DNA of 63,078 nucleotides, filler included, from Stramenopiles sp. TOSAG23-6 (lineage: Eukaryota): the NCBI GenBank assembly GCA_900128565.1. It is 23 parts of 23 records of this genome, joined end to end, with 100 filler letters (N's around TTAATTAATTAA, not from the genome) between each part and the next. Parts side by side here need not be neighbours in the genome. Positions count along the whole stretch, not along the records: positions 5,523 to 8,183 come from LT637890.1; positions 8,284 to 10,942 come from LT637892.1; positions 11,043 to 13,701 come from LT637893.1; positions 13,802 to 16,459 come from LT637894.1; positions 16,560 to 19,216 come from LT637895.1; positions 19,317 to 21,972 come from LT637896.1; positions 22,073 to 24,727 come from LT637897.1; positions 24,828 to 27,482 come from LT637898.1; 15 more parts are not named here. The stretch is one strand, 5' to 3'. This document shows, piece by piece, positions 8,045-57,732 of the stretch. The notes below the pieces were generated by a model. The model was not told the origin of the DNA, searched no databases, and saw only the letters and a list, made by a program, of their open reading frames with translations. Every line of letters begins with the position of its first letter. Within the stretch, counting starts at the first letter, position 1. The translations under genes and the position numbers were made by a program.

Positions 8045-8410
8045 ACGTATTGTGAAATATAGTTCACGTTTGAAATTCGTTAGGTACACAATGTTTTAGG
8101 AAAAACAATTTGAACAATAATACATCTGAATAAATTTGAACAATAAATTTGAACAATAAATTTGAACAATAAATTTGAACAATNNNNNNNNNNNNNNNNN
8201 NNNNNNNNNNNNNNNNNNNNNNNNNNNTTAATTAATTAANNNNNNNNNNNNNNNNNNNNNNNNNNNNNNNNNNNNNNNNNNNNAAAAAAAAAACACGAAT
8301 TTTTTTTAGGGAAAAAAAAAAATCGTTAGGTACAAAATTTCGTAGAAAAAAAAAAAAAAAAAAACCAAAAAAAAAATAAATAAATTAATAAATTCATGAT
8401 GAAAACGTAC

Positions 8411-8797
8411 ATGTTCAGGAAAATTATGTTTTTCATGCCATTTTGTCCTATTAAATTTACGCTTTAAAATATTCGCTGTAGGAGGAGTTAATCCATGAGG
8501 GAAATCTACATCTGGGAGACGTTCCTTATCTATATCAAACACAATCATCATTTGACCAATATCACCACTCTTAAAGTATGTTTTTGAGTCTAATGTTTTG
8601 TGTGATTCAATGACACAAGGTAAGTTAACTACTTGGGCGGGGTATATAACACCATCAAACGTAAACTCAGCATCCTTACCACGTTTATCATTGATTTTGT
8701 ATGAAATATTGTTCATTTCACCTGATCTTAACTTATCACGGAGTGTTTCAGCAAGCATAGGGGGGAGGCGAAGAATCATTTGACCTTCATCAGCCAT
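8411..8797 (-). CDS. TAF7: TFIID subunit TAF7 (TAFII55 N-terminal domain), first exon
   Basis: EGQMILRLPP, VNLPCVIESHKTLD, YFKSGDIGQMM, FPHGLTPP. The exon ends at CAT|GTACGT, the donor of a family intron that runs off the contig. Confidence 0.92.
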
Positions 8798-9121
8798 GGT
8801 CTCAACGTGGAACGCAACACAAAGATTAACAACAAAACCTTTTATACAATGACACAGTTCTAGTATAATCAACAAATATATATCTTGTTACATATAATAA
8901 CGAATCAATGCTATGGGAACTATACGAATAGTACTATTTTATATTGATCTTATTGGAACTGTGTAGTAAAGCGTCAATAATTTTCTCGAGAGAGAAAAAA
9001 CATCGCTTTTTCGATTTTCTGACTGAGTCGACTGACATTATCGATAAATATAAATATCATGACAGAACTGTCTCACAACCAACCAAAGATTACATTATTA
9101 GCGACAATATTATAAAGCTAA

Positions 9122-9919
9122 ATGAATCCACCTAAACCAACGTGTTATGAAGAGGATGTCTTTCAAAAGGTGTTTAGTGGGCTAGGTCCTGCCATTGTGA
9201 TTTATAAATATTTATGCTTGAAAGATAGACTTTCCGGGAGAGCTACATCAAACGATCCAACCCGACCTTGGATGGTCGGTGTTGACTGGGGTACAGTAAC
9301 TTGCACCAAGACAGCAGAGCACGGCAATTTAGTATTTCTACAATGGTTGAGGAGTCAAAATCCACCTTGTCCATGGGATGGAGAAACGTGTGATTCGGCA
9401 GCTAGAAAGGGTCACTTAGAAGTATTGAAATGGTTAAGAAGTCAAAATCCACCTTGTCCTTGGAACGAAAATACGTGTCGTCATGCAGCTGGAAATGGTC
9501 ATTTAGAAGTATTACAATGGGTAAGAAGTCAAAATCCACCTTGTCCATGGACTGAAGATACGTGTATTTGGGCTGCTCTATTTGGTCACTTGGAAGTATT
9601 GAAATGGTTAAGAAGTCAAAACCCACCTTGTCCATGGACTGGAAGGTTGTCTTTGTTGGTAGCTCAAAACGGTAACTTGGAAATATTGAAATGGTTAAGA
9701 AGTCAAAATCCACCATGTCCGTGGGATGAATTGACGTGTGCTGCAGCAGCTAAAAAAGGTCACTTAAAAGTATTGAAATGGTTAAGAAGTCAAAATCCAC
9801 CTTGTCCGTGGGATGAAAGGACGTTTCAGCATGCAGATTATTATGCAGCTCATAATGGTCACTTGGAAGTATTACAATGGTTAAAAGAGGTAAAAGCACC
9901 AGGTTATGAATATTATTAA
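9122..9919 (+). CDS. Ankyrin-repeat protein with 26-aa repeats (AAxxGHLEVLKWLRSQNPPCPW)
   Basis: About 7.5 near-identical repeats, also visible as a 78-nt DNA repeat; intronless. Confidence 0.9.
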   Translation: MNPPKPTCYEEDVFQKVFSGLGPAIVIYKYLCLKDRLSGRATSNDPTRPWMVGVDWGTVTCTKTAEHGNLVFLQWLRSQNPPCPWDGETCDSAARKGHLEVLKWLRSQNPPCPWNENTCRHAAGNGHLEVLQWVRSQNPPCPWTEDTCIWAALFGHLEVLKWLRSQNPPCPWTGRLSLLVAQNGNLEILKWLRSQNPPCPWDELTCAAAAKKGHLKVLKWLRSQNPPCPWDERTFQHADYYAAHNGHLEVLQWLKEVKAPGYEYY

Positions 9920-10352
9920 GAAACATTTGAAATACGATTTTTATAATTTTCATTTATGAAAGTTAAAAAATGAAAGTTAAAAAATGTTGATACTTTTCTG
10001 TTTTATTTTTGTTCACTTTTTTTTTATATTTGGTTTTGTGTCTTTGAGTTTGAGCCTATGGCATATAAATAGCCATATATGACATTGTCTTAAAGACCAA
10101 AAGCTATACATTTGCTTACATACATCATTTTAATGTTAGATTACGGTGCACAAGCTCTACAGTCAGATACAAACAAAAACTGAGTAACGAAACAAAACAT
10201 AAATTAATCAGCTTTTGTTGTATAAGTATAAAAATATCCAAAATAACCAAATTAACCAAATTAACCAAAATAAAAAAAACACACAACTACAACTTTAACT
10301 ACAATGTTTCACTTTCGATTTTATTTTATTACTTTCGAATTATTTCGAATCA

Positions 10353-10838
10353 TCACTTCTTATCACGTAAATTAGCCAAACGAGCTTCTAAATCATCAAC
10401 AGCAGGATCACATGCACCACCACCACCACCACCACCACCACCTCCCATGCCAACAGCAACTGGTGCTTGTGGCACATTAACAGCTGGTGCTGCATTCTGA
10501 GTGACTCTTTGCTCTGGAGCATCTGGAATATCCCCTGACATTTGAACACCACTATATTGTTACAATATATGTATATATATATATATTGTTTGTTAGGTAC
10601 AGAATTTTTTATAAAAAAAAAAAAAAAAAAATTGAAAAAAAAATTGAAATTTTTTTTTGTTTTTTGTTAGGTACAAAATTTCGTATGAAAAAAAAAAACA
10701 TACATTTCATCGAGTACTTGAGAGACAACCGCTTCTTCTTCCTCTTCATCGTCCATGTCTCCCATTGCTCCATCAATTGCTTCGCCCATATTTTCACCAA
10801 GCATATCAGATCGTTCATTTTCCATTTCAAATTGTTTC
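10353..10838 (-). CDS. CHMP2: ESCRT-III subunit CHMP2/Vps2, last two exons (10838-10704, 10551-10353)
   Basis: Spliced product KQFEMENERSDMLGENMGEAIDGAMGDMDDEEEEEAVVSQVLDEIGV...DDLEARLANLR matches the CHMP2 C-terminal half with its MIM1 motif. Confidence 0.85.
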
Positions 10839-11095
10839 ATGTAATTTTTTCAGATATTTCAATTTTTTTTTTTTTTTTTTTGTTTGGGAAAAAAATTTTT
10901 TTAAAAAAAAAAAAAAAAAATTTTGGTTTTTTTTTTTTTTTTNNNNNNNNNNNNNNNNNNNNNNNNNNNNNNNNNNNNNNNNNNNNTTAATTAATTAANN
11001 NNNNNNNNNNNNNNNNNNNNNNNNNNNNNNNNNNNNNNNNNNTCGTACGAAAAAAAAATTCGATTTTTTTGTTAAAAAAAAAAAATAAAACATAC

Positions 11096-13645
11096 ATGTA
11101 CATCAGAGGGCAAAAATTCGACTTTTTCGTGTGGAATAGGTAACCAATCGGATAAACCATAATCATAAGCAACACGAAATATGGCACAAATATCTTCATT
11201 TTGTGTGGTTGTTGTTGGAGAAAAAAGTTGAGGAGAAATATTTTTTTTTTCATCCATAACTTTCATATTGTCATCAAGCGACATTGCATTGAGTTCATCA
11301 TAATTAAATTGATGATAAATTTTTACTCTTTTTTTCATCGATTTACGTAATAATGAAATTTCCTTTGAGATTTCACTTTTTTTTTTCAAAACAAATTCAA
11401 TTAGTGTTCCTAATAAAATACCAGAATTTAACCACACACGAACCCGACTGCCTATCAAACGATTTAATTTCTTTTGTGATTTTTCATCCTTCAAATTCCA
11501 ATGTAAATCTGTATTAAAATTGAAATTTGAATTTGTCTTATTATCCGTCGTAATATCATTATCATTACTAGCATCACTCGAAAAAGAACAATTATCTACT
11601 ATTCCTCGAATATTTTTCAATTTTTCAGAGAGATGTATTTTGGAAAAATATTTCAAAAAAAAAAATTAAATTCGTTAGGTACAAAATTTCGTATGAAAAA
11701 ACAAAATCGATTTTTTTGTTAAAAAAAAAAAGTAAAACATACATGACTTTTTATACGTTTTTCATTCGTTTGATGATCTGGACGAATATCATTATAATTT
11801 CCATGAACTTTCATATATTTATTATATTCCTTCTTTTCTGATTCAAATCGTTTCACATCATCTTCTGCAAGTTTGATCTCCTCTGCTAAATCGGCTGGAG
11901 TGAGCTTTTTCATTTCTTTTTTTAATAAAGATATCCTTTCATATTGCGATAAATTGGGAAATAATTCTTGCATTGGTTGCATAAATTTAAGAACATAAAA
12001 ATCGAAGACACTTCGTGGAACATTTGGTTGTGGTTTTACATCAACATTTCCACGTTGACTACGTAGAGGAATTTTCCTTAAAACAATTTTACGACTATTG
12101 CTACTTTTTACACTGAACTTAAATTGATGTATACCAGTCATTTCCTTACTTTTAGTTGATAGTTTACAAGATTTTTTTTGTTTTTTTTGTTTCTTACAGT
12201 GAAAATCAGGAACAGAACTGTCTTTATAATTCCAAGTGACTTTTCGTTTTTGACCAGTTATGGCCACAGAATCACGTTCATCTAAAATATCTAAATCAGT
12301 TGTCTTGATTTCAGCAAGTCCATACTATACTGTGAAAAAATATTTTTGAAATATTTTTGAAATTTGTTTGGTAAAAATATTTTTTTAGTAAAAAAAAAAA
12401 AAATTGAAAAAATATTTTTGAAATTTGTTAGATATTATGATATTTTCTAGTAAAAAAAAATGAAATTCAAAAGGACGACGTACACGGTCTCGCTCTCTTT
12501 CGACAAATGCAGCGAGAATTTCAGGATTTTGTTTTTTCCATTGCATCAATTCTCTCGCATATCGAATTTTATCTTTTTCGTGTTTTTCATTTGCGATTTT
12601 TTTTTCTTCTTTTGTTGCTGCCTTCCAGCGGAGACCTAACTGACGATGAATATCCTGAGGTGTAGCATTTGGATCTGCTATTTTGATTAACGGTCGATGA
12701 ATTTCTGCAAAAAAATTGTATGGGATTTTCGGCCCTTTTGGTCCTCCAGGAATATATTGTGAAAAAAAAGTTCAAAACATTGTTTTGAAATTTGTTAGGT
12801 ACGAAATTTCGTACGAAAAAAATGAAAAAAAAAAAAAAAGTTCAAAACATTGTTTTGGAATTTGTTAGGTACGAAATTTCGTACGAAAAAAAAATGGAAA
12901 AAAAAAAAGTTGAAATTTTAATGGGAATGTACATTTTCCTTTGTCGTACGACTTTTCGTTTGCTTGGCTTTGGAGCTGTATCTTTTTGTATTAACCATTG
13001 TAAATATTCTCGCTTTCGCTGTTCACTTGAATCCCGATTTTTGATGTCACAAATGTGAATCGCTGGGCGACTTTTTTTTGAAGTTTTTATTGACTTTTTG
13101 AATTTGGTTTGATGAGATTTAAAACGAAATGAATGAAGCTCTCGCCCAAGTTCAATTGCTCTTCTATCTTTCTCAAAACAATCATCAGTGATTGGAATTC
13201 CACAGACATATTTATCTGTTTTTAATTCATATTTTGGATATTTTGTTTGAGTCAACAAAAGTTTTTCATCTTCATCAGAACTACAGCACGAAACTGCTTC
13301 AACAACATCAATATAAGGATTTTCATTCAACCATTTTGCAATATCTTTTGCATATCGATGTTTATCAAGAATAGACAGTCGATTCGCCTCAGCGATTTCT
13401 GCTTTTGTTGCCGCTGCCCAGCGATTTTTAATTACAACTTTCGTCTCAGCATTAGTTAATTGTGGATTTGTATTACGTAATTCGGCGCGAAGTTTAGTGA
13501 CAAATATATGATACGCTGGGATCCAACGTTTTGGACCTTTTCGACCTTCGATTCGAAGCTTCCTTCTCCTTAGATTTCGTGCAGACATTTCGAGATTTTG
13601 AAAACCATCATCATCGTGATCAGATCCAGAGTTATAAAATGAATC
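11096..13645 (-). CDS. Protein with three HMG boxes, partial; exons 13645-12933, 12751-12484, 12324-11743, 11632-11096
   Basis: HMG-box starts GPKRWIPAYHIF, GPKGPKIPYNFF and PNVPRSVFDFY. Exon phases are consistent after removing the family introns. Confidence 0.8.
11633..11742 (-). other. Non-canonical GT-AT intron (family member)
   Basis: CAT|GTATGT...TACCTAAC...TTCCAAAATACAT|CTC; phase-0 join KSH|LSE. Confidence 0.8.
12752..12932 (-). other. Non-canonical GT-AT intron with duplicated core motif
   Basis: AT|GTACAT...CACAATATAT|T; the join restores IPGGPKGPKIPY at an HMG-box start. Confidence 0.8.
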
Positions 13646-13801: not shown

Positions 13802-14559
13802 AAAGCTGCAAATCAAGGCAATACGGACGCACAGCTTCGTCTTGGTACATGTTATTTACGTGGTCATGGTGTCGCTAAATGTGAAAAAACTGCTGCTGAA
13901 TGGTGGACAAAGGCTGCAAATCAAGGCAGTATGCAAGCGCAGTATAATATTGGTTCCTTTTATTTTTTCGGTAAAGTTGTCACTAAATGTAAGAAAACTG
14001 CTGCTGAATGGTATACAAAGTCTGCAAATCAAGGCAATATGCACGCGCAGTATTCTCTTGGTGACTGTTATAGAAAGGGCGAGGGTGTCACTAAATGTAA
14101 TAAAAACAAGGTCATGGGAATTCACAGCTCTATCTTGGTTCATTTTATTTACATGGTGATGGTGTCGCTAAATGTGATAAAACTGCTGCTGAATGGTGGA
14201 CAAAAGCTGCAAAGCAAGGTTTAATGCAGGCACAGCACCATCTTGCTACATGTTACCATTTTGGTTGTGGTGTTACCAAAAATTTGAAAACTGCATCAAA
14301 GTGGAATAAGAAAGCAAAAAAGCAAATAACAGATAAAACAGAAAGCTTAATAAAAACAAAAATTATATCAATGGACAAATCAACATGTATCACTTGTGGT
14401 AAATCTGGTAGTCAATATAAGTTTGTCCTTTGTAGCCGATGTTTATCCGTGTGTTATTGTTCAAAGAAGTGTCAAACAATACATTGGAAGAGTACACACA
14501 AAAAAACGTGTCAAAAAATAAAACCTGAAAAAGTCGAATTGGTTGAATCAAAATCTTAA
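13802..14559 (+). CDS. Sel1-like repeat protein with C-terminal MYND zinc finger, 5'-partial, frameshifted near 14105
   Basis: Repeats AAEWWTKAANQG..AQYNIG; CITCG...CSRCLSVCYCSKKCQTIHWKSTHKKTC is zf-MYND. One repeat is internally shortened with a frame change. Confidence 0.85.
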
Positions 14560-14688
14560 GATTAGTCGTGTGAATTGAAGTTGTCTATATAAAAAAAGAT
14601 GAAATCGTAATTTTATTTCTATACATTGAAATTTGGTACAAAACAAAATAATATTTTCAATTTGCAATTTATTGTTTGAAATCAAAAA

Positions 14689-16430
14689 TTAACTACACCA
14701 AACCATAAAATCTGAACTTAAATTTCGCAATAACTTCAATTTCTCTTCAGGATATAAATCCCACTCTGGTGATACATTAGTATCACTACCATTATCTACA
14801 CCAGAACCAAGATTATATTTTGTACTTATATTGTTACCTGAAGGTACAAGACCACCACATCGCCCACGAATTCTATTACTATAAGGACCTGCTGTGGCAG
14901 CCCAATCTTGAAGTAAATCCATTGTTGCAGGTCGATTTCTAAGTGATTGATTATTTTCATTATTATTATTTTGTTTCTGATTTGTCTGTGACTTCCGCAA
15001 TAAATACAACTTCTTTGTCAAATCCGTCGCAATTTCTGTTAAAAATATTTTTTCTTTGAGTGTACCATAATGTGTACCACTCACATTTCCAAGCCTCTGA
15101 CGAACATCTTCTAACCTACTTTCAATTTCTGACGGTTCGATTGTACCAGAAGTACTCGTTTTAATCATACGTTGCAACTGAACATATCGAAGGATCATTC
15201 CACCTCGATGTTCCCATGTAGGCACTTCGAATTTATGTTGCTCTATCGCAGATAAAATCGTTTCAAGTGATTTAGTAGTATCTTCATCATTATTTAACAT
15301 TGTATGAGGTGCAACATCAGTCATTACAACTTCATGTGCTTCGACCCATTGTTTCGAGGATGTTAAATAGGTTAATTGTGCAGCAATGTTACCTTCATAT
15401 GCTGCGCGCTGAGCCATAGCAGCATGAACCCATTCTGTAGGTACATGTAACTTCCTCTGCAAAAATTCAGTTCTTTTTTGGAATTCAGGATCAACAAACG
15501 GTGGATCTGTTGTAAGAGGAGGACAATGACGACACATAATATCTCGCGCAGCAGCTTCGCGGTGTTCTGGATCAGGAAGATGCAATACAATATATATGGC
15601 CCATATCCACATTCCATATGCCTGTAACTGTGCCGAGAAATCACGATTTAAACGAGCAGATATTGAACGTACTGAATAATTACTTATATCATTCTCTGAA
15701 CAAGTTGGTACACATCCAAGAGCTACAAGAGCTTGAAGAAGAAACCAACTCATCTGAGCATCTTGAACATCATCGGTACTACTACGACAATCCAATGCGC
15801 CTAGAAATGCTCGAGCATCACTTCGATCACAAAACAAACGTAACAAACACCAAATGTTGTCACGATAAGCATCGTACCCGGAACTATTCCTAACCTCAAA
15901 ACTACTATACCCATCATCAAAATTTCCCTCATCAATGGTTTCAGTATTAACAGGATAACGCATTGGCCATTTCTCAATATACCAAGGACGAGGAACTGGA
16001 ACAGTTCGACTCTTCAAATTGTTGCGTTCAATATACGCGCGGACGACAGTGGCAACAGTTGCATTTGCTGGCAATATATTGTTCAACAATGTACTAAATG
16101 ATTGTTTCCATGACATCGAATCCGCAGATACATGACGTAAAACTTCCGCTTCATCTCCAGCAAGAAGTGCGTATGTTAGCCACAAATCTCGATGACGTAA
16201 TGCTATTAAATTGTGAGCTTTCTGTTTCCGCCATTCATCCAATTGTTCAGCAACTAAAAGACGAAATTCTTCACCACCCCCTGATTGAGCTATGAGACTT
16301 GCAAGACGAAGGTTTCCATCTGCAGAGGCATGCTCATAAGCTTCTTCGACACGACCAGCTACTAGTAATTGAAAAAGACTACCTTTTCCAGCTTCGCCTG
16401 TATTTTCAGATATGTTTTGTTCTATTACTT
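14689..16430 (-). CDS. NUP98: Nucleoporin Nup96 (C-terminal part of Nup98-Nup96), 5'-partial
   Basis: LFQLLVAGRVEEAYEHA..GNLRLASLIAQ, YALLAG, PRPWY, FSAQLQAYGMWIWAIYIVLHL, FLQRKLHVPTEWVHAAMA. The 5' limit is approximate. Confidence 0.88.
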
Positions 16431-16559
16431 TTATTATTTTAAAAGTAGAATTAAAAGAANNNNNNNNNNNNNNNNNNNNNNNNNNNNNNNNNNNNNNNNN
16501 NNNTTAATTAATTAANNNNNNNNNNNNNNNNNNNNNNNNNNNNNNNNNNNNNNNNNNNN

Positions 16560-19216
16560 CGTGATCGGCGATTACAAAAAATGGCTAGAGAGGCTGGAAA
16601 AGCTGTGTGTGATGCAAAACAACGTCGCATTTTGGTAGATGAACGTACTCGTGATGCTAGAAGAGCCCTTGCTCGTCGAATTGAGCAAAGTCAAGCCCAT
16701 GCAGAGTCGAACCGTTTGGAACTTCAAGCTCAGCGACTCTCTCGAAATCATACTGTGAGCCAACGTGTACAACAAAGGAAGCAGCAACTAGAAGGCGAGC
16801 AAAGAAAATTAGTTGATAAAATGTCCAAAGGTTTGAAACGACGTCTTAGTAATGCAGGCCATCGGCGGGAAGGTTTTTTACATGAAGTGAGTGAACAAGC
16901 CAGCGACAGTTATCAACATTTCTTTACAAGAATGAGTCCACAGGCGAATGCTTCATCTGCCCTTGCAACAGCCGTAGCAATGCAACCGAGTCCAACGAAA
17001 GATGAACTTCATACTATGCCAAAAATCAATATTGGCGATACAGAAAGAAAAGCATCGAATGAGGATTGTAATCTAACATTTTCACGTGAAAAAATTGGAG
17101 AAATATCCAAAGCAGTCGAACCAAATTCACGCCGGTCTTCTCTACTTGCAGAAGAACTAGGTACAAGTCAAGAGACTCTTCCACCAATAAGTCAAGAGAT
17201 TCTTCCACCAAAAATAGATCTCGTTTGCCCTCCTCCAATACCAGTTAAAATAATTCATGAAGACGAAATTGCTGGTTCTATGTCGCATCCAGCTATGCTT
17301 ATTCAACGCTATTGGCGTTCAAATGCAAAATATCGTAGATGGAAACGTAAATTATTAATGAAAATACCAATGAAAAATTCTAACTCGGAAGAACAAGAAG
17401 AACCTCAAATACCCATAACCTGGTTTATTCAATGGGTTAAAAAGCTTGGAGCTTTACCATTCGATGAATGTGCCCAAGAATTACAATCTGAAAATGGAAG
17501 AGAAAATACAAAACTCATGCTTGGAAGCATTCCTCGAACCATTGCTCTGTCTCGAATTGACCCACGTCTTCGATCTACACGTGTTTTTCTTTCGGCAGTG
17601 CTAATTACATTACATCCAGAAATTGCTCTTGGAAATAGTGGAGAAGCAAAGGATAGTGGGACAGAAAAAAATGATACAATAAGTGTAAATCTCCATGAAG
17701 CTGCGAAGAAAATGATGAAAATGGTCCATAGTCTAAATGTTGTTTGTTATGAAAAACCAGCGAAGTTGTGTCGTGTCCAGAAGATTGCAGAATGTATTCG
17801 CCGTTTCAACTTATCGCGACGAGCATTTATGATTGCATTTGTGCCATGGCGAAGTCGTGATATACCTAAATTACTGGGAAATTGCGCTCATATGTATATG
17901 AATCTTCTCGCGGCACAGGCAGAAACATATTCTCCAAAACTTTCACCCGCGTTACGATCTGAAGCAGTTTCCCAATCGGTTGAGACTGTGCAGATCTCAC
18001 AATCAGAAGCTGTAATGGCAGAAATTACAAGACAAAAAAAAATGGTCATGGAACAAGTAGTTCGCCTAATTGGTCCGTCCAAGGCTGCAGAGTGGGAATT
18101 GAGACTTCAAGCGGCAACCGCGCCATATTTTGCTCAGTATGCACGAAGCCCTGGAGCGTTATTGGAAAAACGCCAGATGCAAAGTGAGGCAAGTTCATCT
18201 TCTGTACCTCCGTCAAATCTAGACATTGTGAACTTGAATGCAGTGCGTGTGTCACGTGCAGCGGCTAATTCAGCATCGAAGAGTGCAAACTCTATTCGGG
18301 CTCTCTCGGCTGCTTGGCGAGGTGAAACGGTTTCACCATCTTCATCGCCCAGTTCTTCTGTTGGTAATACAGGTGGCAATTGGGCGACAATGGACGCTCG
18401 TAATGAAGCAAGTATGAAAACTCTGACATCGACTTCTCCTAAAGCTGGAACAAAATTACCACCTCGATCAATGCATGATAAAGCAGAGCGTTTCCGTGGA
18501 ATAAATGTATCAAACTTAGACACGGAATCACCTGCTGCCAAGGAGCCTACAGGATTGTTAAAGAATGAGCAACTAGCTCATGAATTAATTCTTAATCCAT
18601 CGTACCAACTTCCTATTCCTGAGATCCCTGAAAATTGTTTACTGCCTGAATCAACTGTTTTTACTTCAACAAGCAAAACGTGTGCGAATGAAAAAGAACC
18701 ACTTGACCTTGAAAGTAGATTTAAGAAAGCAATGGAGAGGGCTTATTGGGATAAACTCAAAAATGATGTCCAGAATGGTAACTTTGATCTCCTCATGAAG
18801 ATGCTAATAGAGTTGCATGGATCACTTCGATCTTTAGTGAGTGGCAAGTCCCAAGCATCTCAAAAGCTTGCAAGAGAGATGGAGAATAGTATTGACAGTG
18901 AGTGGCTAAAACAGAATTTGAAGCAGGGTGTATTTAGCATTGAAACTTTGAGAAAATTACTCCAATTTCTGGTGAGTATAATTCTGAAACTTGAAGCACC
19001 TGTTCATAATGAAGCTACCACTGCATGGCTTAGTGCCATTGAAAAGAGACTAACGAATTCAGCAAATACAAAACCAAAGAAGCCGGATGAAACTGTTGTA
19101 GATATTGATGAAATGACGGTAAAGGATCTTAGGAATATTGTGTCAAAATCCGGTTTATCATCTGAAGATTGTGTGTCAAAAAGTGAGTTACGTGATCGGG
19201 CTCGAGAAGCATTTAA
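16560..19216 (+). CDS. T-complex protein 11 (TCP11/SOK1) domain protein, partial
   Basis: RVFLSAVLITLHPE, NEQLAHELILNPSYQL, MERAYWDKL, LEAPVHNE. Also an IQ-like AMLIQRYWR and a C-terminal SAP/ARMET-like MTVKDLR..DCVSKSEL. Intronless across the contig. Confidence 0.8.
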
Positions 19217-22132: not shown

Positions 22133-23425
22133 GTTCTTCTGTCACACACAGAATTGACTAACCTCCTTGCAGAATTTAGACAATATGCTGTTTTAAACGA
22201 TTGGCCTCCACCGCATGACAAACAATCTTGGCTTAATAGAAAAAAAGATGATCCAAAATTAGTGTGTCCTTTGTTTCCTTTAGTATTGGCAGCATATTTG
22301 CGAAACCGTGAACCTCACGGGTGGAGTTGGGGTTTAGGTGATGGAAAATTATATGTAGTGAATAAGTTACTTCATAGTAGATCATGTATCTTTGTATCAT
22401 TTCTTTGCTTCGGATTTATATTTTCAGTAATGGCAACATTCATTGATGAAAAAGAAAAGGTTGCTGTTGAAGGAGAAGAAGATAAATGGACAGCATCAGT
22501 TTATAATTTAAATGGAATAGCAAAAGTTTTGTATACTTTTGGGTTTGTTGGTTGCCTTGACATCATCGTAAAAAATATTGCTGGAAAATTCCGACAAATT
22601 TCTACGGGAAAGTACGTTTTCATTATGAATTTCAAATTTATTTATTTTTTAGTACGAAATTTTGTACCTAATAAATTTCGAATTTTAATCTTTTTTACAA
22701 TACATGTCAATACTACGTCGTTGGGCGGCAAACATCCAAAATGATGTACATAATGATCGAGATATCGAGAATAAAACTGTAAAGCAAAACACAAGTTTAT
22801 TAGGCGAACTTGCAGATGTTGATGGAGATGGATGCATGTTTTATTTTTTTTTAATTCGAATTTTTGTTTCGTACGAAATTTTGTACCTAACGATTTTTTT
22901 CAGATATTTTTCCAAAATACATGTGTTGAAGTTTCTGAATTGAGGGCATTATTACTAGGTAGCGATATACCAATCAGTGAGCCTGCGATTCAATATATTT
23001 CACTTCAAATGCAAAAAATATCTCTAAATGATACTAAAATTGACCATGAAGAGTTCCAAAACTTTGTGATGTCCTTAAAATGTTCAACTAAAGTTGAGGA
23101 AAGCCTCTTTGTTTTTGAGCATGCGGTGCGAAATCCGATGATTTACGCTTTAGTATTTGCCATACTTTCATGCGCACTCGGTCTTGGTCAACATTTTGTC
23201 TGGGAAAGTAAAATAGTAATTGCCAAAGTAGCTGAATGCATGACGTTGTTCAGCGGTACAGTACCTATATATTACTACACTCAAGTAAAATGTGATCATT
23301 ATTTACTTGTGCAACAAGGAAAGCTTAATCTTGCCTGGGTTTTTAGAAACAGGATTACACAAAAGGAAAAAAAATCTTTAAAAGTTGCTGTAAAAAAGAC
23401 TCAACATCTAAATTTCTGGTTGTAA
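22133..23425 (+). CDS. Membrane protein with an EF-hand pair, 5'-partial; exons 22133-22611, 22706-22833, 22923-23425
   Basis: Splicing yields an intact EF-hand DVDGDGCVEVSEL and a second lobe KIDHEEFQNFV; several hydrophobic segments. Confidence 0.75.
22612..22705 (+). other. Non-canonical GT-AT intron
   Basis: AA|GTACGT...GTACGAAATTTTGTACCTAAT...TTACAATACAT|G; frame preserved. Confidence 0.8.
22834..22922 (+). other. Non-canonical GC-AT intron within an EF-hand loop
   Basis: T|GCATGT...TACCTAAC...TCCAAAATACAT|GT gives an exact 12-residue EF-hand loop. Confidence 0.85.
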
Positions 23426-23640
23426 TATTTAGTATTACTCATGAAATACAAATAATAAAAAGAAACGAGAAAAGGTTTACCGAGAATATACAATGTCACA
23501 AAAGCTTAGTTGTAGTCGAGTTTTATAAATTTCATCTAAATAAATTTGTTGAAAAATAATTCATTGATCATTTTTTTTTTCGTACGAAATTTTGTACCTA
23601 ACAAAAACAAAATTTGAAATATTTACTAGATGTTCAACTC

Positions 23641-27582: not shown

Positions 27583-27627
<45 letters not shown>

Positions 27628-27683
27628 GTATGAAATTCTGTACGTAAGATTTTTTTTTTTTGAAATATTTCTTCATAATCCAT

Positions 27684-38458: not shown

Positions 38459-38579
38459 ATGTATTTTGGAAAAATATTTNNNNNNNNNNNNNNNNNNNNN
38501 NNNNNNNNNNNNNNNNNNNNNNNTTAATTAATTAANNNNNNNNNNNNNNNNNNNNNNNNNNNNNNNNNNNNNNNNNNNN

Positions 38580-49547: not shown

Positions 49548-49579
<32 letters not shown>

Positions 49580-49642
49580 TATGAAATTTTGTACCTAACA
49601 AATTTTTTTAGAATTTTTTTGAAATATTTTTTCACAATTTAT

Positions 49643-49962
49643 CTGATGATGATATTGATTTTAACCTTGATTATTATTATGATGATACTGATGATGATGA
49701 TGATTTGACCGAGGAAGAAAGACAATTACACATTGAAAATCAATGGTGTAATGACCAATACCGTTTAAAAACAAGAAGAATGTCATTTGGGGATGATGAT
49801 GACTCTACTAACCCTAACCCTCGATATAATATGGATGATATTTCAACATATTATGCAAATATTTCACCATTCTCTTCTCAACACAATGCTGCCATAACAA
49901 TCCAAGCAATGTATCATCGTAATCAACTCCGTCATGAGAAAAAACATGAATCAAAAGTATGA
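49643..49962 (+). CDS. Terminal exon, acidic, with IQ motif (duplicate at 52372-52691)
   Basis: AAITIQAMYHRNQLR; preceded by intron end TTCACAATTTAT. Confidence 0.6.
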
Positions 49963-50091
49963 ATTGTATATAACAACAAAACACGAAATTCTTCCAAGTT
50001 AAAGTTGAAATCGTGTTTTTTAAATTTTTTAATTTTTTTAAATTTTTTTATTTTTTTATCGAAAATAAAAAAATAAAAAATATATAAAAAA

Positions 50092-51270
50092 TTATTCACT
50101 ATCACTATCAACAATTCTTCTCTTGATACGTTTTTTCTTTCTTGGTGGTTGCATATCTTCATTCGTTGACATTGATGATGATATGTCCATTGATTTTTCA
50201 TTCTCAAAATTTTTATTTTTCAATATTTCATTTTGGTCATTTTGGTTAGGGGTAGCATTATTATTATCCCCTAGATTGGTAGACGATTTCGTAGTAAAAT
50301 CTGTAGTTAAATCCATCATATCCTCATCATCATCATCATCATCATCATCATTTTTTTTTGATAGTCGACGTCTTTTGAATCGAGATTTTTTTGTAGTATT
50401 TTTTGTAGTATTTTTTTTGTTATTTTTCAAATTATTCAATGTTTGAATATTTTCATCATTAGGGTTAGGGTTAGCGCCTTGTAATCGAGATAAAACTTTA
50501 CTCCATTTAATTTGTTCTTGTGATTGATCGACGGTATACAAAATAGTTAAACCATTGGTAGCATCAATATTAAGAATTGTACCTATATTGAAAAAATATA
50601 TTTCGAAACATTTTACAACTTTTTTTTGTTAGGTACAACATTTACTATGAAAAAAAAATTATTGAAAAAAAAAAAATTATTGAAAAAAAAAAATTATTGA
50701 AAAAAAAAAAAGTTAAATATAGAAAAATTACAATCGTACCATTTGCCCTTATACCCAACAACAATTTCATCATTGACAGACCAACGACCGATTGCGAAAT
50801 CAGGAATTTTTGACTTCATTTTATCTTTTTGCATTTTCTCGATTTCGTGTTTTTTAGCTCTTTCTTCTGAATTTTTTTGTATCTCCGAAGGCAATTGTTT
50901 TTTAAGTATTTGATCCATATCACGAAGATGTTTATTTGGTACTAGATTTGAAATCCACCAAGCTGTTGTTTAGAAAATTTTAAAAATTTTATATTATTAG
51001 GTACGAAATTTTGTATGTGAATGAAAAAAAATTTAAAAAAAATTTAAAAAAAAATTTAAAAAAAAAATTTACATTTTTTTTAAAAAATGAAAATTTTTTT
51101 CAATCTATTTTTAAATACATGTACAATTCATATTAAAAACGTACATTTAATTTCAGGCGATGGTGAAATATTTGGAGGAAGAAATTCCAAAGATCGAAGA
51201 ACTCGATGAACCTATAGTGTGAAAAAATATTTCAAAAATTACAAAAATGTTTGTTAGGTACAAAATTTTG

Positions 51271-51301
<31 letters not shown>

Positions 51302-52176
51302 GTGAAATGAATTTTGAAATGAATTTTTGAAATGAATTTTGAAAGACTTACACTGCGATTTGATAGCCAATGTTGAATATTTTCGGGTTGTGTAGTATCA
51401 TTCATCTCTTCTGTAGACAATTTCTTTTTCGACTGTTTTGATTCAACATTTGTACCTAATTGGTACAAAGGAACTGAATATTTTTTTGTTTCATCATTTT
51501 TTGAATTTTCATCATTTTTTGAATTTTCATTTTCATCATTTTCATCACTTTCGACTTCATCTTCATCACTTTCATCACTTTCATCTTCATCATTTGAATA
51601 TTCATCACTTTCATCACTTTCATCATCATCATCTTCTTCATCATCATCATCATCACTTTTTGTATCTTCATTTTGTTGACTTAATTGAGAACTCATTACA
51701 TTCAATATCTGCATACTAATCCATTGTTTGAATGGTTTTAATGATTTTTTACTTAATTTGAACTCATTTTCTAATAAATTTCGTACTTTACTACCAAATA
51801 GTGTAAGAAAATATGTCAGAGAATAATAATGTTAGGTATCTAGATTATGTTTTAGTATTGGATTTTTATAATTGTACAACAAAATTAAAATTGAAATTTA
51901 AATTAAAATTTAAAAAAAAAAAAAAATTTGTTTTCTGTTAGGTACAAAATTTTGTATAATAAAAAAAATGTATATATATATATTATATATATATATATAT
52001 ATATAGGGTTAGGGTGTATAAAAACGTACTGTCATTGTGTTCATATCTGCATCTTTAAGAATATTTGATATTTCGTGAATAATTTGCTGTGCTGTCAACC
52101 CAACTGTAGAAAAATCAGGTCCATTTGTTGTATCAATTTCCATGCTAGGGTTAGGGTTTTCATCGATGTTTTGTTC
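50092..52176 (-). CDS. Chromatin-type protein with DEK-C and Tudor-like domains, 5'-partial; exons 52176-52030, 51795-51352, 51211-51145, 50962-50732, 50582-50092
   Basis: ILKDADMNTMT|GSKVRNLLENEF (DEK-C); WSVNDEIVVGYKGKWYDCTIL..ILY (Tudor-like). Phases are consistent. Confidence 0.68.
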
Positions 52177-52276: not shown

Positions 52277-52308
<32 letters not shown>

Positions 52309-52820
52309 TATGAAATTTTGTACCTAACAAATTTTTTTAGAATTTTTTTGAAATATTTTTTCACAATTTATCTGATGATGATATTGATTTTAACCTTGAT
52401 TATTATTATGATGATACTGATGATGATGATGATTTGACCGAGGAAGAAAGACAATTACACATTGAAAATCAATGGTGTAATGACCAATACCGTTTAAAAA
52501 CAAGAAGAATGTCATTTGGGGATGATGATGACTCTACTAACCCTAACCCTCGATATAATATGGATGATATTTCAACATATTATGCAAATATTTCACCATT
52601 CTCTTCTCAACACAATGCTGCCATAACAATCCAAGCAATGTATCATCGTAATCAACTCCGTCATGAGAAAAAACATGAATCAAAAGTATGAATTGTATAT
52701 AACAACAAAACACGAAATTCTTCCAAGTTAAAGTTGAAATCGTGTTTTTTAAATTTTTTAATTTTTTTAAATTTTTTTATTTTTTTATCGAAAATAAAAA
52801 AATAAAAAATATATAAAAAA

Positions 52821-53999
52821 TTATTCACTATCACTATCAACAATTCTTCTCTTGATACGTTTTTTCTTTCTTGGTGGTTGCATATCTTCATTCGTTGACA
52901 TTGATGATGATATGTCCATTGATTTTTCATTCTCAAAATTTTTATTTTTCAATATTTCATTTTGGTCATTTTGGTTAGGGGTAGCATTATTATTATCCCC
53001 TAGATTGGTAGACGATTTCGTAGTAAAATCTGTAGTTAAATCCATCATATCCTCATCATCATCATCATCATCATCATCATTTTTTTTTGATAGTCGACGT
53101 CTTTTGAATCGAGATTTTTTTGTAGTATTTTTTGTAGTATTTTTTTTGTTATTTTTCAAATTATTCAATGTTTGAATATTTTCATCATTAGGGTTAGGGT
53201 TAGCGCCTTGTAATCGAGATAAAACTTTACTCCATTTAATTTGTTCTTGTGATTGATCGACGGTATACAAAATAGTTAAACCATTGGTAGCATCAATATT
53301 AAGAATTGTACCTATATTGAAAAAATATATTTCGAAACATTTTACAACTTTTTTTTGTTAGGTACAACATTTACTATGAAAAAAAAATTATTGAAAAAAA
53401 AAAAATTATTGAAAAAAAAAAATTATTGAAAAAAAAAAAAGTTAAATATAGAAAAATTACAATCGTACCATTTGCCCTTATACCCAACAACAATTTCATC
53501 ATTGACAGACCAACGACCGATTGCGAAATCAGGAATTTTTGACTTCATTTTATCTTTTTGCATTTTCTCGATTTCGTGTTTTTTAGCTCTTTCTTCTGAA
53601 TTTTTTTGTATCTCCGAAGGCAATTGTTTTTTAAGTATTTGATCCATATCACGAAGATGTTTATTTGGTACTAGATTTGAAATCCACCAAGCTGTTGTTT
53701 AGAAAATTTTAAAAATTTTATATTATTAGGTACGAAATTTTGTATGTGAATGAAAAAAAATTTAAAAAAAATTTAAAAAAAAATTTAAAAAAAAAATTTA
53801 CATTTTTTTTAAAAAATGAAAATTTTTTTCAATCTATTTTTAAATACATGTACAATTCATATTAAAAACGTACATTTAATTTCAGGCGATGGTGAAATAT
53901 TTGGAGGAAGAAATTCCAAAGATCGAAGAACTCGATGAACCTATAGTGTGAAAAAATATTTCAAAAATTACAAAAATGTTTGTTAGGTACAAAATTTTG

Positions 54000-54030
<31 letters not shown>

Positions 54031-54905
54031 GTGAAATGAATTTTGAAATGAATTTTTGAAATGAATTTTGAAAGACTTACACTGCGATTTGATAGCCAAT
54101 GTTGAATATTTTCGGGTTGTGTAGTATCATTCATCTCTTCTGTAGACAATTTCTTTTTCGACTGTTTTGATTCAACATTTGTACCTAATTGGTACAAAGG
54201 AACTGAATATTTTTTTGTTTCATCATTTTTTGAATTTTCATCATTTTTTGAATTTTCATTTTCATCATTTTCATCACTTTCGACTTCATCTTCATCACTT
54301 TCATCACTTTCATCTTCATCATTTGAATATTCATCACTTTCATCACTTTCATCATCATCATCTTCTTCATCATCATCATCATCACTTTTTGTATCTTCAT
54401 TTTGTTGACTTAATTGAGAACTCATTACATTCAATATCTGCATACTAATCCATTGTTTGAATGGTTTTAATGATTTTTTACTTAATTTGAACTCATTTTC
54501 TAATAAATTTCGTACTTTACTACCAAATAGTGTAAGAAAATATGTCAGAGAATAATAATGTTAGGTATCTAGATTATGTTTTAGTATTGGATTTTTATAA
54601 TTGTACAACAAAATTAAAATTGAAATTTAAATTAAAATTTAAAAAAAAAAAAAAATTTGTTTTCTGTTAGGTACAAAATTTTGTATAATAAAAAAAATGT
54701 ATATATATATATTATATATATATATATATATATAGGGTTAGGGTGTATAAAAACGTACTGTCATTGTGTTCATATCTGCATCTTTAAGAATATTTGATAT
54801 TTCGTGAATAATTTGCTGTGCTGTCAACCCAACTGTAGAAAAATCAGGTCCATTTGTTGTATCAATTTCCATGCTAGGGTTAGGGTTTTCATCGATGTTT
54901 TGTTC
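52821..54905 (-). CDS. Duplicate copy of the DEK-C/Tudor-like gene
   Basis: Identical to 50092-52176. Confidence 0.65.
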
Positions 54906-55114: not shown

Positions 55115-55935
55115 AATTTCTGGTCTTTTCGACCTAAAATTAATAAGCGCTCGCGGGACAGACGGCCAAGGACATTAGATGAGATGAGTACTGGAGATGC
55201 TTTGCGAAAAGAAACAACACAGAGACTTTTAAAGATAAAAGCAGAACAAGATATGTATGTTTTTAAAAACCCTAATTTAAATTTTTTTTTCAAAAATTTT
55301 TTCAAAATTTTTTCAATTTTTTTTTTTTTTTTTTCATAGTAAATTTTGTACCTAACCAAAAAAAAAAATATATATATTTTTTCACAATAAATGATGAAAG
55401 GTGTTACGTTCCAACCCAAGACGAATAGTGGGTCTCGTCTTGCACCACAAAGTGTGGGGCGATTGCAAATTCTTAGTGCTCCAGACAGTTACATTGCAAG
55501 AGTACAAAATCAAGTATGTTTTTTTTTTTTTTTCAATGTTTAGTCAAAATTTTCTTTATACGAAATTTTGTACCTAACAAATTTTCAAAATTTTTTTTGA
55601 AATATTTTTTCATCATACATGCAAATTTAAATTCGGAAAGGAAAAGACGAGCTGCACAGGAATCCGATATGATGGAATTCTCTGAATGTACATTTAAACC
55701 ACAAGTTCATGATGCTCCTGCCTATATGTATGTTTTTTTTTCAATGTTCAGTTTTTTAGTCTAAATTTTTTTTTTATACGAAATTTTGTACCTAACGAAT
55801 TTTTTTTTTTTTTGAAATATTTTTCCAAAATAAATTATACGAATCGCAAGAAGTTTAGCTGCAACCAAGGCTGCTAGAGCTGCGGCTGAGGCAGTTCATA
55901 ATAATAAACGCATAGAAAAACCATCTTGGAAGTAA
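55115..55935 (+). CDS. C-terminus of a protein with (C/V)TF(K/Q)P repeats; exons 55115-55254, 55393-55513, 55621-55727, 55836-55935
   Basis: Three GT-AT introns give WSFRPKIN, DMMKGVTFQPK, ECTFKPQVHDAPAYIIRIARS...KPSWK*. Confidence 0.75.
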
Positions 55936-55981
55936 AGCAAACAATAACTAATAATAAATGCATAGAAAAGCCAATTTGTGG

Positions 55982-56071
55982 ACGTAGTATGAATTTTGTT
56001 TGTACAACATCTTAGGTACAAAATTTCGTATGAAAAAAAAATATTTTGAAAAAAAAAAAAAAAACACACAC
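55982..56071 (-). mobile_element. Intron-family element in non-coding DNA, inserted in one unit of a local repeat
   Basis: Minus strand GTGTGTGTTT...CATACGAAATTTTGTACCTAAG...CATACTACGT. Removing it restores TGGAAGTAAAGCAAA as in the neighbouring unit. Confidence 0.7.
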
Positions 56072-56331
56072 AAGTAAAGCAAATTTTCTGTAACTACTAT
56101 ACGATAATACATGCATAGAAAAAAGCTAAATTGGGAAATAAAGGCACTGATATAAGTGTTGATAAATATATTTTCGCAATAAAAAAGAGTTGTTTAAATT
56201 GTAAATTTTTTTTTTGTCAAATGTTTTTTTATTTTTATAAAAATTTTACACAAATAGTACGCAATGTACAATTTAAATTTACAGTATGAAAAATACAGAT
56301 AAAAAAAAAGTTGAAAATCAAATTAAAAAAA

Positions 56332-57133
56332 TTATAAGACTGCAAATAAAAGCGCAGCTGATTCAGGATTTTTTCGAATTCGTCGTTTTCTTGGACTTTC
56401 TTTAGGTTTTTTTGTATGTTTTGTATGTTTTTTTGTAGTAGGGTTAGGGTTTGGAGATTCTGTATTAGGGTTAGGGTTTACTACATCATTTTTTCCTATT
56501 TGAGTTTTTTTTTCAAAATCATTTATTCGATTCTCTCTTGGACTTTTTGGAGTTTTTGGAGTTGTTGGACGTCTAAACGATTTTCCACTTGAAGTAGCTA
56601 ACCATGTATTTTGGAAAAATATTTGAAAAGAAAAATTAAAAATTTTTGTTAGGTACAAAATTTCGTATGAAACCAAAAACCAAAAAAAATAAAAATAAAA
56701 ATATTTTTTTTTTTTTACCGAAAAAAAAAAAAATTAATAAAACATACAATTACGTAATGTATAAGAGCATTCAGCATTAGAATAACGAGGTCTTATATTT
56801 CGTATCGTTTTTGATCTTTTTAATGAAAATAACTCTTTATTTGTGTTGATAAACTGTTCAGAAGATCCAACGGAGCTAATGTTACCCAACGAAAGTTGTC
56901 GTAATTTTAAAGGTAACTTTCCATGTAGTAAGAAAAATATTTCAAAAAAAAAAAAAAATTCGTTAGGTACAAAATTTCGTACGAAAAAAAAAATTGAAAA
57001 AAAAATAAAACATACAGTATTTGTTCTAGCCTTTCGCATATCTTCCAACATACTATGACACTCCAATGCAGATTTTGCAGCAGGTCTGTAATGAGGTATA
57101 TTTCTATTCACTTTATTCACTGAATAGACTTTC

Positions 57134-57173
<40 letters not shown>

Positions 57174-57566
57174 CATCTGGATACAATTTATTCTCTTGTA
57201 TAGCTTTTTTAGATTCATCTATATTCAAATTTTGTATAGTTTTATTAGGGTTAGGGTTTTGAAGACTATTTGAAAGTATTGAATGAATACGAAATTCAGG
57301 TAAACACAAGTCTAAACATGACGTCACAAATGGTCTCCAAATATCAGTATCTGTAAAAAAACGTTCCACTAAAAGTTGAATGGATGTATTTTGAAAAAAT
57401 ATTTAAAAATTTACCAAAAAAAAAATTTGTTAGGTACAAAATTTTTTTACCAAAAAAAAAAAAAATCGATTAGGGCTAGGGTTAGGGTTAAAAAAAAAAA
57501 TAAAACATACATTGAGTCTCACATATTTTATCTAAAAAATGCCCACGTTCTTTTTCAGTCGCAGAA
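56332..57566 (-). CDS. C-terminal part of a protein with a polyQ tract; exons 57566-57511, 57383-57016, 56922-56748, 56603-56332
   Basis: Three GT-AT introns give a continuous ORF. FLDKICETQSIQLLVERF is weakly dDENN-like. Confidence 0.65.
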
Positions 57567-57732
57567 ATGTATTTTAGAAAAATATTTCAAAATTTTTTTT
57601 GTTAGGTACAAATTTTTTTTTTTTTTTTTTGANNNNNNNNNNNNNNNNNNNNNNNNNNNNNNNNNNNNNNNNNNNNTTAATTAATTAANNNNNNNNNNNN
57701 NNNNNNNNNNNNNNNNNNNNNNNNNNNNNNNN

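Follow-up and report, generated by a model that had tools for sequence, protein, structure and literature searches.

How is the 3' end of an intron chosen when the terminal AG is missing? The question was raised by a stretch of DNA of 63,078 nucleotides (nt), called the window below, from Stramenopiles sp. TOSAG23-6 (GenBank assembly GCA_900128565.1). Its genes are interrupted by copies of one short intron family, and most of the copies end in AT instead of AG. The window is composed of 23 contigs of 2,623-2,661 bases each, which were sorted by length and joined with the linker N44-TTAATTAATTAA-N44 (e.g. 2662-2761). Because separate contigs were joined end to end, genes flanking a linker are not genomic neighbours. 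Contigs 1, 2 and 3 are identical (1-2661, 2762-5422 and 5523-8183), and so are contigs 19 and 20 (49548-52176 and 52277-54905). Therefore, the intron copy counts were de-duplicated.

The family was present in 12 of the 23 contigs. It is a single short element of about 90-110 nt, rich in A+T, with its parts in the order GTAYGTTTT, T-rich tracts (with a few sub-family variants), the core TTCGTACGAAATTTTGTACCTAAC, a second T-rich tract and then GAAATATTTTTCCAAAATACAT. The consensus of the 3' box is TTTTYCAMAATAYAK, and 15 short copies align end to end. The core matched 37 times with at most 3 mismatches, against 0.00 matches expected from 100 shuffles. With at most 5 substitutions the number was 52, redundant contigs being counted. 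The family with a GTAYGT start, T-rich tracts, a core and a 3' box that the original prediction had described is therefore real. A curated set was made of the complete non-redundant introns with both the donor and the 3' box inside a contig (n = 33). These introns are 87-234 nt long with a mean A+T content of 82%, and they are spread over at least 12 genes. Their donors are GTATGT (13), GTACGT (8), other GT (11) and GC (1). A CTAA(C) branch-like motif (TACCTAAC) was found in 33/33 introns at 31-59 nt from the 3' end, inside the range of about 18-60 nt that is usual for the yUnAy branch motif of U2-type introns, and the intron positions -18 to -11 are T-rich. For the question of pairing with U1 and U2, the strings at the RNA level are GUAUGU for the donor and UACCUAAC for the branch. 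In diverged copies only GTANNT, the CTAA(C) branch-like motif and a 3' end TAYAK persist.

The 3' ends of the 33 curated introns are AT in 21 cases and AG in 11, and one end is uncertain (TT in the box register). The 3' end is thus A(T/G) in 32/33. The earlier count of 22 AT, 13 AG, 1 TT and 1 GT among 37 introns was close to these numbers. An end-blind count was also made, in which the highest-scoring occurrence of the 13-nt box TTTTYCAMAATAY (minimum score 12) was located downstream of each branch-like motif and the next two nt were read. It gave 19 AT, 6 AG and 2 GT among 27 non-redundant 3' ends. Among the AT-ended copies, A stands at -2 in 21/21 and C at -3 in 16/21. As had been claimed, the AG-ended copies (TATTTTCTCAAAATACAG, ATATTTTTCAAAATATAG and TATTTTTTCACACTATAG) share the box and its register with the AT-ended ones in the position tables. 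Two 3' boxes in the family register end in GT (CACAATACGT), at 24673 (-) and at 8045 (-, also 5284 and 2523); at 24673 (-) an AG lies 10 nt past the GT-ended box and may be the site used.

The introns are listed here with their strand, a slash marking a splice boundary.

10552-10703, minus: family intron with two tandem cores, at/GTATGT..TAG; frame kept
11633-11742, minus: family intron, at/GTATGT..ACAT; 194/186 codons open
12325-12483, minus: diverged family intron, gt/GTACGT..TATAG; frame kept
12752-12932, minus: family intron with two tandem cores, at/GTACAT..ATAT, directly ahead of an HMG box; frame kept
22612-22705, plus: family intron, aa/GTACGT..ACAT, no AT ahead of the donor; frame kept
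22834-22922, plus: family intron, at/GCATGT..ACAT, interrupting the EF-hand loop DVDGDG/CVEVSE; frame and presumed loop pattern
25015-25113, minus: family intron, ac/GTACGT..TCAT, junction yielding PYEVR; frame and homologues
25494-25599, minus: family intron, at/GTGTGT..ACAT, junction SE-Y-AILGTPGGD; frame, conserved in homologues
26945-27035, plus: family intron of the prolyl oligopeptidase gene, at/GTATGT..ACAT, junction NQYVLY/KCNSLEE; homologue alignment
27870-27998, plus: family intron, ac/GTAAGT..GCAG; frame kept
32021-32128, plus: family intron of an HTTM-domain gene, at/GTACGT..ACAT; frame kept
32713-32814, plus: family intron, at/GTACGT..ACAT; frame kept
34737-34827, minus: diverged intron, tg/GTACGT..ACAG, one internal N; frame kept
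34963-35055, minus: family intron, tt/GTATTT..ATAT; frame kept
35261-35368, minus: family intron, at/GTACGT..TACAT; frame kept
35502-35588, minus: family intron, at/GTATGT..ACAT; frame kept
38459-38479, minus: 3' box ..CCAAAATACAT/ of an intron truncated by the contig end, then the GLDC exon HNRNICLIP; homologue structures
47077-47213, minus: PARG gene intron, at/GTATTT..TATAG; frame kept
47326-47438, minus: PARG gene intron, ag/GTTTGT..ACAT; frame kept
47543-47717, minus: PARG gene intron, aa/GTATGT..ACAT; frame kept
47802-47976, minus: PARG gene intron with two cores, at/GTATGT..TATAT; frame, next exon matching 3SIG from its first residue
48144-48318, minus: PARG gene intron, at/GTATGT..ACAG; frame kept
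48392-48503, minus: PARG gene intron, at/GTAATT..ACAG; frame kept
48615-48744, minus: PARG gene intron, aa/GTATTT..ACAG; frame kept
48873-49002, minus: PARG gene intron, ag/GTATTT..ACAG, core beyond recognition; frame kept
50583-50731, minus: family intron, tt/GTAATT..TATAG, second copy in contig 20; frame kept
51212-51351, minus: family intron, gt/GTAAGT..TATAG, second copy in contig 20; frame kept
51796-52029, minus: family intron with CCCTAA repeats, 3' end uncertain (TT in the box register); frame kept
55255-55392, plus: family intron, at/GTATGT..AAAT; frame kept
55514-55620, plus: family intron, aa/GTATGT..ACAT; frame kept
55728-55835, plus: family intron, at/GTATGT..AAAT; frame kept
56604-56747, minus: family intron, tt/GTATGT..ACAT; frame kept
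56923-57015, minus: family intron, ct/GTATGT..ACAT; frame kept
57384-57510, minus: family intron with CCCTAA repeats, at/GTATGT..ACAT; frame kept

The reading frame was kept in 33/33 introns when the cut was made from the donor G to the end of the box. At least 20 codons are open upstream and at least 18 downstream, mostly far more. The chance of keeping the frame is one in three per intron; therefore, the result for the AT-ended copies (21/21 in frame) is not accidental. Eighteen AT-ended introns were compared with the possible use of an AG. The box end was in frame in 18/18, whereas the first AG past the branch motif was in frame in 6/18 and the first exonic AG in 7/18, which is the chance level. 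In the AG-ended members, the first-AG rule finds the box end in 10/11. These counts support the view that most family members would be unable to use an AG. They also agree with the original argument that use of an AG shifts the frame or deletes residues, VLYK and RNICLIP being the ones lost. Frame-preserving exon chains placed all 33 introns in sense orientation, as do the genes with homologues, and the early statement that the inserts are always sense was upheld. A test of orientation by the length of the flanking open reading frames (ORFs) alone gave only 26/34 in sense and was too noisy to use.

Homologous proteins were used to fix the junctions. The first case is the prolyl oligopeptidase (POP) gene. 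Its product, when spliced from GT to AT, gives a gap-free alignment with P0002, a EukProt protein of 756 residues with 79% identity across the second exon (KNDGLQNQYVLYKCNSLEEAMSG versus KNDGLQNQYVLYKANSLEDAMNG). The stretch at the junction is KNDGLQNQYVLYKCNSLEE, against ...YVLYKANSLED of P0002. The public gene model P0001 (26494-27460, +) uses a nearby GT..AG pair and is without VLYK and nine more residues that are present in P0002. It also runs on into the next intron (VRFHHEF...). In the case of GLDC, the contig begins inside an intron, whose box ends ...CCAAAATACAT, and the following codons align to chain 4LGL and to human 6I33. The conserved RNICLIP begins 6 nt past ACAT/ with no AG between; the first AG, 33 nt downstream, would delete RNICLIP. 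In the PARG gene, the exon after ...AAATTATAT matches residues 211-236 of chain 3SIG from its first residue (GKRFVILGALGCGEYGNDP versus GHRRLVLGAWGCGVFGNDP, E = 0.0005), and the stretch from the branch motif to this exon is free of AG. The identity of the gene as microbial-type PARG rests on an atlas lead (0.94, all 30 matches) and on the 3SIG match. Pfam gave no family for the single short PARG exons, a second PARG exon had no PDB match, and the homologous-protein search returned nothing for a PARG exon and nothing for the first exon of the EF-hand gene. The fourth case is a conserved protein without a name, encoded by the minus strand of contig 10, for which a full HMMER search returned 40 relatives. 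Its junction ...HFLSCVDPRSE-Y-AILGTPGGDAGEF matches HFLSCMDGRAEYAVFGAPGGDLGEF and HFFSCMDGRAEYAILGTPGGDLGEF without a gap in an alignment with six relatives. R-S-E-Y-AILGTPGGD is matched in P0099-P0106, the conserved Y being the split codon t/at. The next junction of the same protein gives PYEVR, where relatives have AYEVR or TYEVR. The homologues confirm the predicted non-AG junctions in four proteins (prolyl oligopeptidase, GLDC, microbial-type PARG and the contig-10 protein). The restored motifs first reported for prolyl oligopeptidase, PARG and GLDC stood up in these alignments. The EF-hand reading DVDGDG/CVEVSE fits what we take to be the loop pattern.

Independent environmental sequence was also compared. 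Contig 10 was aligned with DNA contigs of three 2024 seawater metagenome runs (X3, X4 and X6) and of X5, a second run labelled organism A. All four runs contained its exons, at a depth of 3-13 and with little divergence. In X3 and X4, contigs span 27012-27425/6 and thus cross the AT end of the prolyl oligopeptidase intron; they have 1-2 differences, none of them at 27034-27035. Therefore, the terminal T is not an error of assembly or consensus, an objection that had been raised together with the original prediction. The contigs matching contig 10 numbered 7076 in X3, 2542 in X4, 2180 in X6 and 2250 in X5, the last coming from only 22,991 contigs. They were piled on the intron segments, where the summed depth was 10^3-10^5. 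The depth and the contig numbers in the four runs indicate that the family has thousands of copies. In a search of metagenome contigs, the 20-nt core itself gave 0 matches. A search with P0002 returned just bacterial-looking loci of 41-47% identity, so there was no related locus for a presence/absence comparison. In viral contigs, a 16-nt piece of the core matched 28 loci; the 4 full-core matches (at most 4 mismatches) in these loci were without other family features, and all 28 were rejected as chance.

The two kinds of 3' end differ in age, the AT-ended copies being the younger. The median number of core mismatches is 2 in AT-ended copies and 4 (or the core is unrecognisable) in AG-ended copies (one-sided Mann-Whitney p = 0.0009). 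Donors, too, vary more among the AG-ended copies (GTAAGT, GTAATT and GTATTT). The simplest reading of these sequences would be that the master element ends in AT, that T-to-G changes come later, and that AT is tolerated and AG preferred. In the PARG gene, 3 complete introns end in AT and 5 in AG. Therefore, the same transcripts must be processed both ways.

The copies carry nested inverted repeats: a terminal AUGUAU/AUACAU (exonic AU included), UUCAAA/UUUGAA and, in the middle, GUAC..GUAC on either side of the perfect 10-nt palindrome TTCGTACGAA. A terminal stem of 5-6 base pairs (bp) was obtained in the minimum-energy fold of 7/8 copies. The palindrome looks like the footprint of a DNA element similar to a miniature inverted-repeat transposable element (MITE) rather than a stable RNA structure. 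AT stands ahead of the donor in 13/21 AT-ended and 4/11 AG-ended copies, against 10.5% in nearby exon sequence, and in 7/9 of the AT-ended copies nearest to the consensus core (0-1 mismatch). The palindrome, the AT ahead of the donor as a possible target duplication, and the greater age of the AG-ended copies had no part in the original prediction. No TA repeat flanking the element was seen when the sequence was inspected by eye. Two tandem cores were found in three introns (10552-10703, 12752-12932 and 47802-47976, all -), which suggests that one copy was inserted into another or duplicated within it. Telomere-like CCCTAA repeats (e.g. AACCCTAACCCTAGCCCTAATCGA) replace AACAAAAAAATCGA in three introns, at 57384-57510 (-), 51796-52029 (-) and 55255-55392 (+). 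An exon piece of about 45 nt (ttcgttcagcaggtaattctcctgtttctactcaattgggtcat) occurs on either side of intron 35261-35368 (35261-35420, -), and this repeat suggests a tandem duplication taking in the intron. Non-coding copies at 23540-23630 (+), 55990-56060 (-) and 35994-36017 (+) apparently lie in untranslated regions, on the strand of the neighbouring gene, and have degenerate 5' ends.

What could remove such introns? We consider it probable, with a real margin of doubt, that a palindromic MITE-like introner spread through the stramenopile genes and that the spliceosome removing it accepts YAT besides YAG. Each copy would supply its own donor (GTAYGT), branch-like motif (TACCTAAC), T-rich tract and 3' end TAYAK. 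Removal of everything between the first G of GTAYGT and the final base of the box, both included, would restore the reading frame of the transcript. The terminal AT of young copies may be the duplicated AT insertion target; in that case, splicing from GT to the second AT would recreate the original gene exactly. Since the last two bases of the young copies are AT, the host spliceosome, most likely the major U2-type, would have to accept YAU besides YAG at the second step. The U2-type is favoured because the GT donor, the kept CTAA(C) motif and the TAYAK end are yeast-like major-type marks, the last base apart. A possible contact, which follows published spliceosome structures, would keep the invariant -2 A with the branch adenosine and replace G+1/G-1 by G+1/U-1. 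T-to-G changes would convert the copies with time into ordinary GT-AG introns. A fuller version, in which the ordinary major spliceosome of a free-living marine stramenopile routinely uses 3' AU and AG, an AT-inserting and AT-duplicating MITE made most of the introns, and selection slowly converts AT to AG, is held tentatively, at just below an even chance. If so, nature would offer a genome-wide example of a second step that chooses its 3' site independently of AG while the 5' and branch signals stay canonical, a conclusion that we put forward with the same reserve.

The choice of the AT itself was examined with scanning rules in the 21 AT-ended introns. The first AT is right in 0/21, the first YAT in 3-5/21, the first CAT in 14-15/21 and the first TAYAK in 17/21. 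No simple scanning rule explains all the AT ends; therefore, more context than a dinucleotide is read. The original prediction of AG-independent 3' ends held, whereas its extended branch cassette and 3' box as the signal were not supported, since diverged copies keep only GTANNT, CTAA(C) and TAYAK. The conservation of the 24-nt branch cassette and of the 3' box is explained by the shared ancestry of the copies, and an extended cassette is not needed. A changed U2AF-like factor, as in Fritillaria, may be one candidate for the site choice; Fritillaria introns were reportedly linked to mobile elements by Henriet in 2019.

Several observations weigh against this account. AT is not present ahead of the donor in 8/21 AT-ended copies (22612, 25113, 35055, 47438, 47717, 55514, 56747 and 57015), and the link between the flanking AT and the terminal AT is not significant (13/21 versus 4/11, Fisher p = 0.27). 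For these two reasons, a 2-bp AT target duplication, AT-[GTAT...ATAC]-AT, was left somewhat short of an even chance. The folding is weak, with z-scores from -2.26 to +1.78, positive in 2/8. The U2 systems that have been studied process a 3' AU poorly, and a single indel separates TACCTAAC from the yeast U2 motif TACTAAC and equally from the U12 motif TCCTTAAC. No empty site, intron-less allele or precise intron-skipping joint was seen among the 15 of 283 metagenome joints listed. Neither P0002 nor P0001 is a transcript, both being gene models. The introns were all drawn from a single window of an assembly that is fragmented and in part chimeric.

The main rival, though an unlikely one, is a minor (U12-like) or other second spliceosome with drifted signals, as in Physarum. 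The closeness of TACCTAAC to TCCTTAAC can be read in its favour, and GTATGTTTT agrees with the U12 string GTATCCTTT at 7/9 positions. U12 introns carry the branch motif TCCTTAAC roughly 10-20 nt from the 3' end and have no pyrimidine tract. GT-AT is a documented and experimentally competent U12 subtype, with seven cases in human plus mouse (PMC1557818). In Physarum, U12 introns were multiplied by an inverted-repeat transposon, and their branch motif changed with the U12 small nuclear RNA (bioRxiv 10.1101/2020.10.12.336362). However, the U12 donor is RTATCCTT, and ATCC was found at +3 to +6 in 0/33 donors here. Between the branch-like motif and the 3' end there are 31-59 nt, among them a T-rich tract, instead of the 9-12 nt of Physarum (same preprint). 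The AG-ended members obey the first-AG rule in 10/11, and no AT-AC members were seen among the 33 introns.

The second alternative is a non-spliceosomal removal through the paired ends of the palindrome, in the style of euglenids, hemistasiid diplonemids and Amoebophrya, or an excision of DNA. The terminal stem in 7/8 folds is in line with it. Besides, the AT direct repeat overlaps the borders, as do the repeats of Amoebophrya introners (direct repeats of 3-5 nt, inverted repeats of 8-20 nt; PMC7789003), and hemistasiid introns pair their ends (PMC12621601). Such a route is nevertheless very unlikely. Nonconventional systems have variable borders, whereas a 5' GT/GC and the CTAA motif are each present in 33/33 introns here, diverged copies included. 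The fold z-scores are weak and every copy is sense to its gene. Every DNA source compared contains the inserts, and no excised form appeared among the 15 of 283 joints listed.

The third alternative shifts the boundaries by two bases, so that the intron would read AT..AC (/ATGTATGT...ATAC/) and GT..AT would be an artefact of the AT repeat at the ends. In the 13/21 AT-ended copies with AT ahead of the donor, both cuts give the identical mRNA, and frame and homology cannot separate them there. A-C terminal pairs are also an established alternative that both spliceosomes handle (PMC1557818). On the other hand, the remaining 8/21 AT-ended copies (aa, ac, ag, ct or tt ahead of the donor) keep the frame and would become AA-AC, CT-AC etc. 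GTAYGT would move to +3 to +8, out of its established pairing register with U1/U6, and the AG-ended copies, which share the box register, are ordinary GT-AG introns. The slide was therefore judged most improbable. Finally, it is scarcely credible that the AT-ended copies are unremoved or cut at a nearby AG, their genes being pseudogenes or encoding altered proteins: P0001 does place the intron between a GT and an AG close by, and for 7/18 AT-ended introns the frame would by coincidence survive a cut at the first exonic AG, but the frame is kept 21/21 at the AT end against the chance level for AG, the AG model deletes VLYK (kept in P0002) and would delete RNICLIP in GLDC, and exon conservation reaches the very junction in four proteins.

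The proposed MITE-like introner, removed by a spliceosome that would accept YAT besides YAG, was then compared with known systems. It resembles the introners of Micromonas, Aureococcus, dinoflagellates, aquatic protists and fungi (PMC9860276, PMC12130899). Such introners are short introns that recur nearly unchanged, in hundreds to thousands of copies, at unrelated places in genes; they are sense and frame-neutral, richer in A+T than the exons, and have terminal inverted repeats, a short flanking repeat and their own splice signals. In contrast to the GY-AG or AT-AC ends of the introners described in these two papers, about two thirds of the copies here end in AT. Introner surveys begin from annotated introns, and the one of 2025 dropped families with unfamiliar ends that were without RNA support (PMC9860276, PMC12130899); MAST or stramenopiles have 0 mentions in the main texts of both. 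In Fritillaria borealis, the major spliceosome handles 3' AC and AU genome-wide (PMC13326754). However, less than 10% of the introns there are GT/AG, the 5' ends are non-GT and recognition depends on duplicated U2AF1/U2AF2 paralogs, whereas the 5' GT and the branch are canonical here. The U12 introns of Physarum polycephalum share the inverted-repeat transposon, with a 2-bp target duplication there, and the tolerance of GT-AT (bioRxiv 10.1101/2020.10.12.336362). They differ in the donor [G/A]TATC[C/T]TT and in a TTTGA branch at 9-12 nt from the 3' end, and GT-AT is no majority there but 17% of the 0.8% non-canonical introns (same preprint). The published Physarum annotation had missed the expanded introns, its pipelines forcing GY-AG (same preprint). 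Introns of Amoebophrya, euglenids and hemistasiids, more than 60% non-canonical there, also have pairable inverted repeats and direct repeats that overlap the borders (PMC7789003, PMC12621601). According to the same texts, they are without consistent termini or a branch motif, unlike the GT..A(T/G) and CTAAC found here. The rare animal GT-AT introns have the same pair of ends, in the U12-type (seven in human plus mouse) and in the U2-type DGCR2, conserved between human and mouse (PMC1557818). They occur singly, as oddities in sets of hundreds of thousands of introns, and are not the main form of a family (PMC1557818).

The original prediction had not recognised the system as a described one. 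This was correct in part: GT-AT ends have precedent (PMC1557818, PMC13326754), and no MAST-3 description was found. In none of the open-access papers and bioRxiv preprints searched do introner or splice-site terms occur together with MAST-3, Incisomonas or Nanomonadea. In the main text of MAST genome papers, 'splice' and 'canonical' do not occur in PMC5778133, 'intron' does not occur in PMC8163842, and neither 'intron' nor 'splice' occurs in PMC12614181. A 2026 preprint on protist single-cell genomes covers intron content only. The intron borders of PMC5778133 were refined with est2genome, which expects GT-AG (PMC7789003). With this expectation, and with introner surveys starting from annotated introns, the family could easily have gone unnoticed. 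Introners and spliceosomes using non-AG ends are known, and what is undescribed in the searched literature is the combination of a canonical donor and branch, a mainly AT 3' end and a stramenopile host.

Few signals in eukaryotic gene expression are as constant as the terminal AG. Its large-scale exceptions are few (Fritillaria, Amoebophrya, euglenids and hemistasiids), and all of them are altered at both ends. Here the last base alone differs, and AG-ended controls are present in the same register and sometimes in the same gene, which makes the family a clean natural experiment on 3' site choice in the second step. It also bears on how a host may acquire a new splice signal through the target duplication of a mobile element. 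Genes of an abundant uncultured ocean lineage are built wrongly by gene finders that allow no ends but GT-AG, as exemplified by P0001. For such genomes, the number of genes, the completeness scores and the 'pseudogene' calls may need revision.

Some further features of the window were noted. The name of the best protein match (GSMAST32..., an assembled coding sequence in EukProt), from which the lineage is solely taken, suggests alongside the occurrence in seawater that the host may be a MAST-3-like marine stramenopile. Contig 11 (27583-30235) has the same sequence, inverted, at both ends (27625+ / 30170- and 27903+ / 29892-). In contig 15 (38580-41224), two ORFs on opposite strands reach the contig ends, both with the peptide DAINELESEIIALVKDK. 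Both contigs look like inverted chimeras from whole-genome amplification. A scan of the window with Rfam matched no RNA family. A Copia-type reverse transcriptase (RVT_2, E = 2e-22), broken by assembly gaps, lies at 19317-21972 (-); it belongs to a long terminal repeat retroelement unrelated to the intron family. The G+C content across the window is 23-39%. Contigs free of family introns (13802-19216 and 41325-43968) hold very long unbroken ORFs, namely a Nup96-like one of 589 amino acids, a Tcp11-like one of 885 and one of 753. The Nup96-like and Tcp11-like contigs sit in the stretch of the window where the G+C content peaks (up to 39%).

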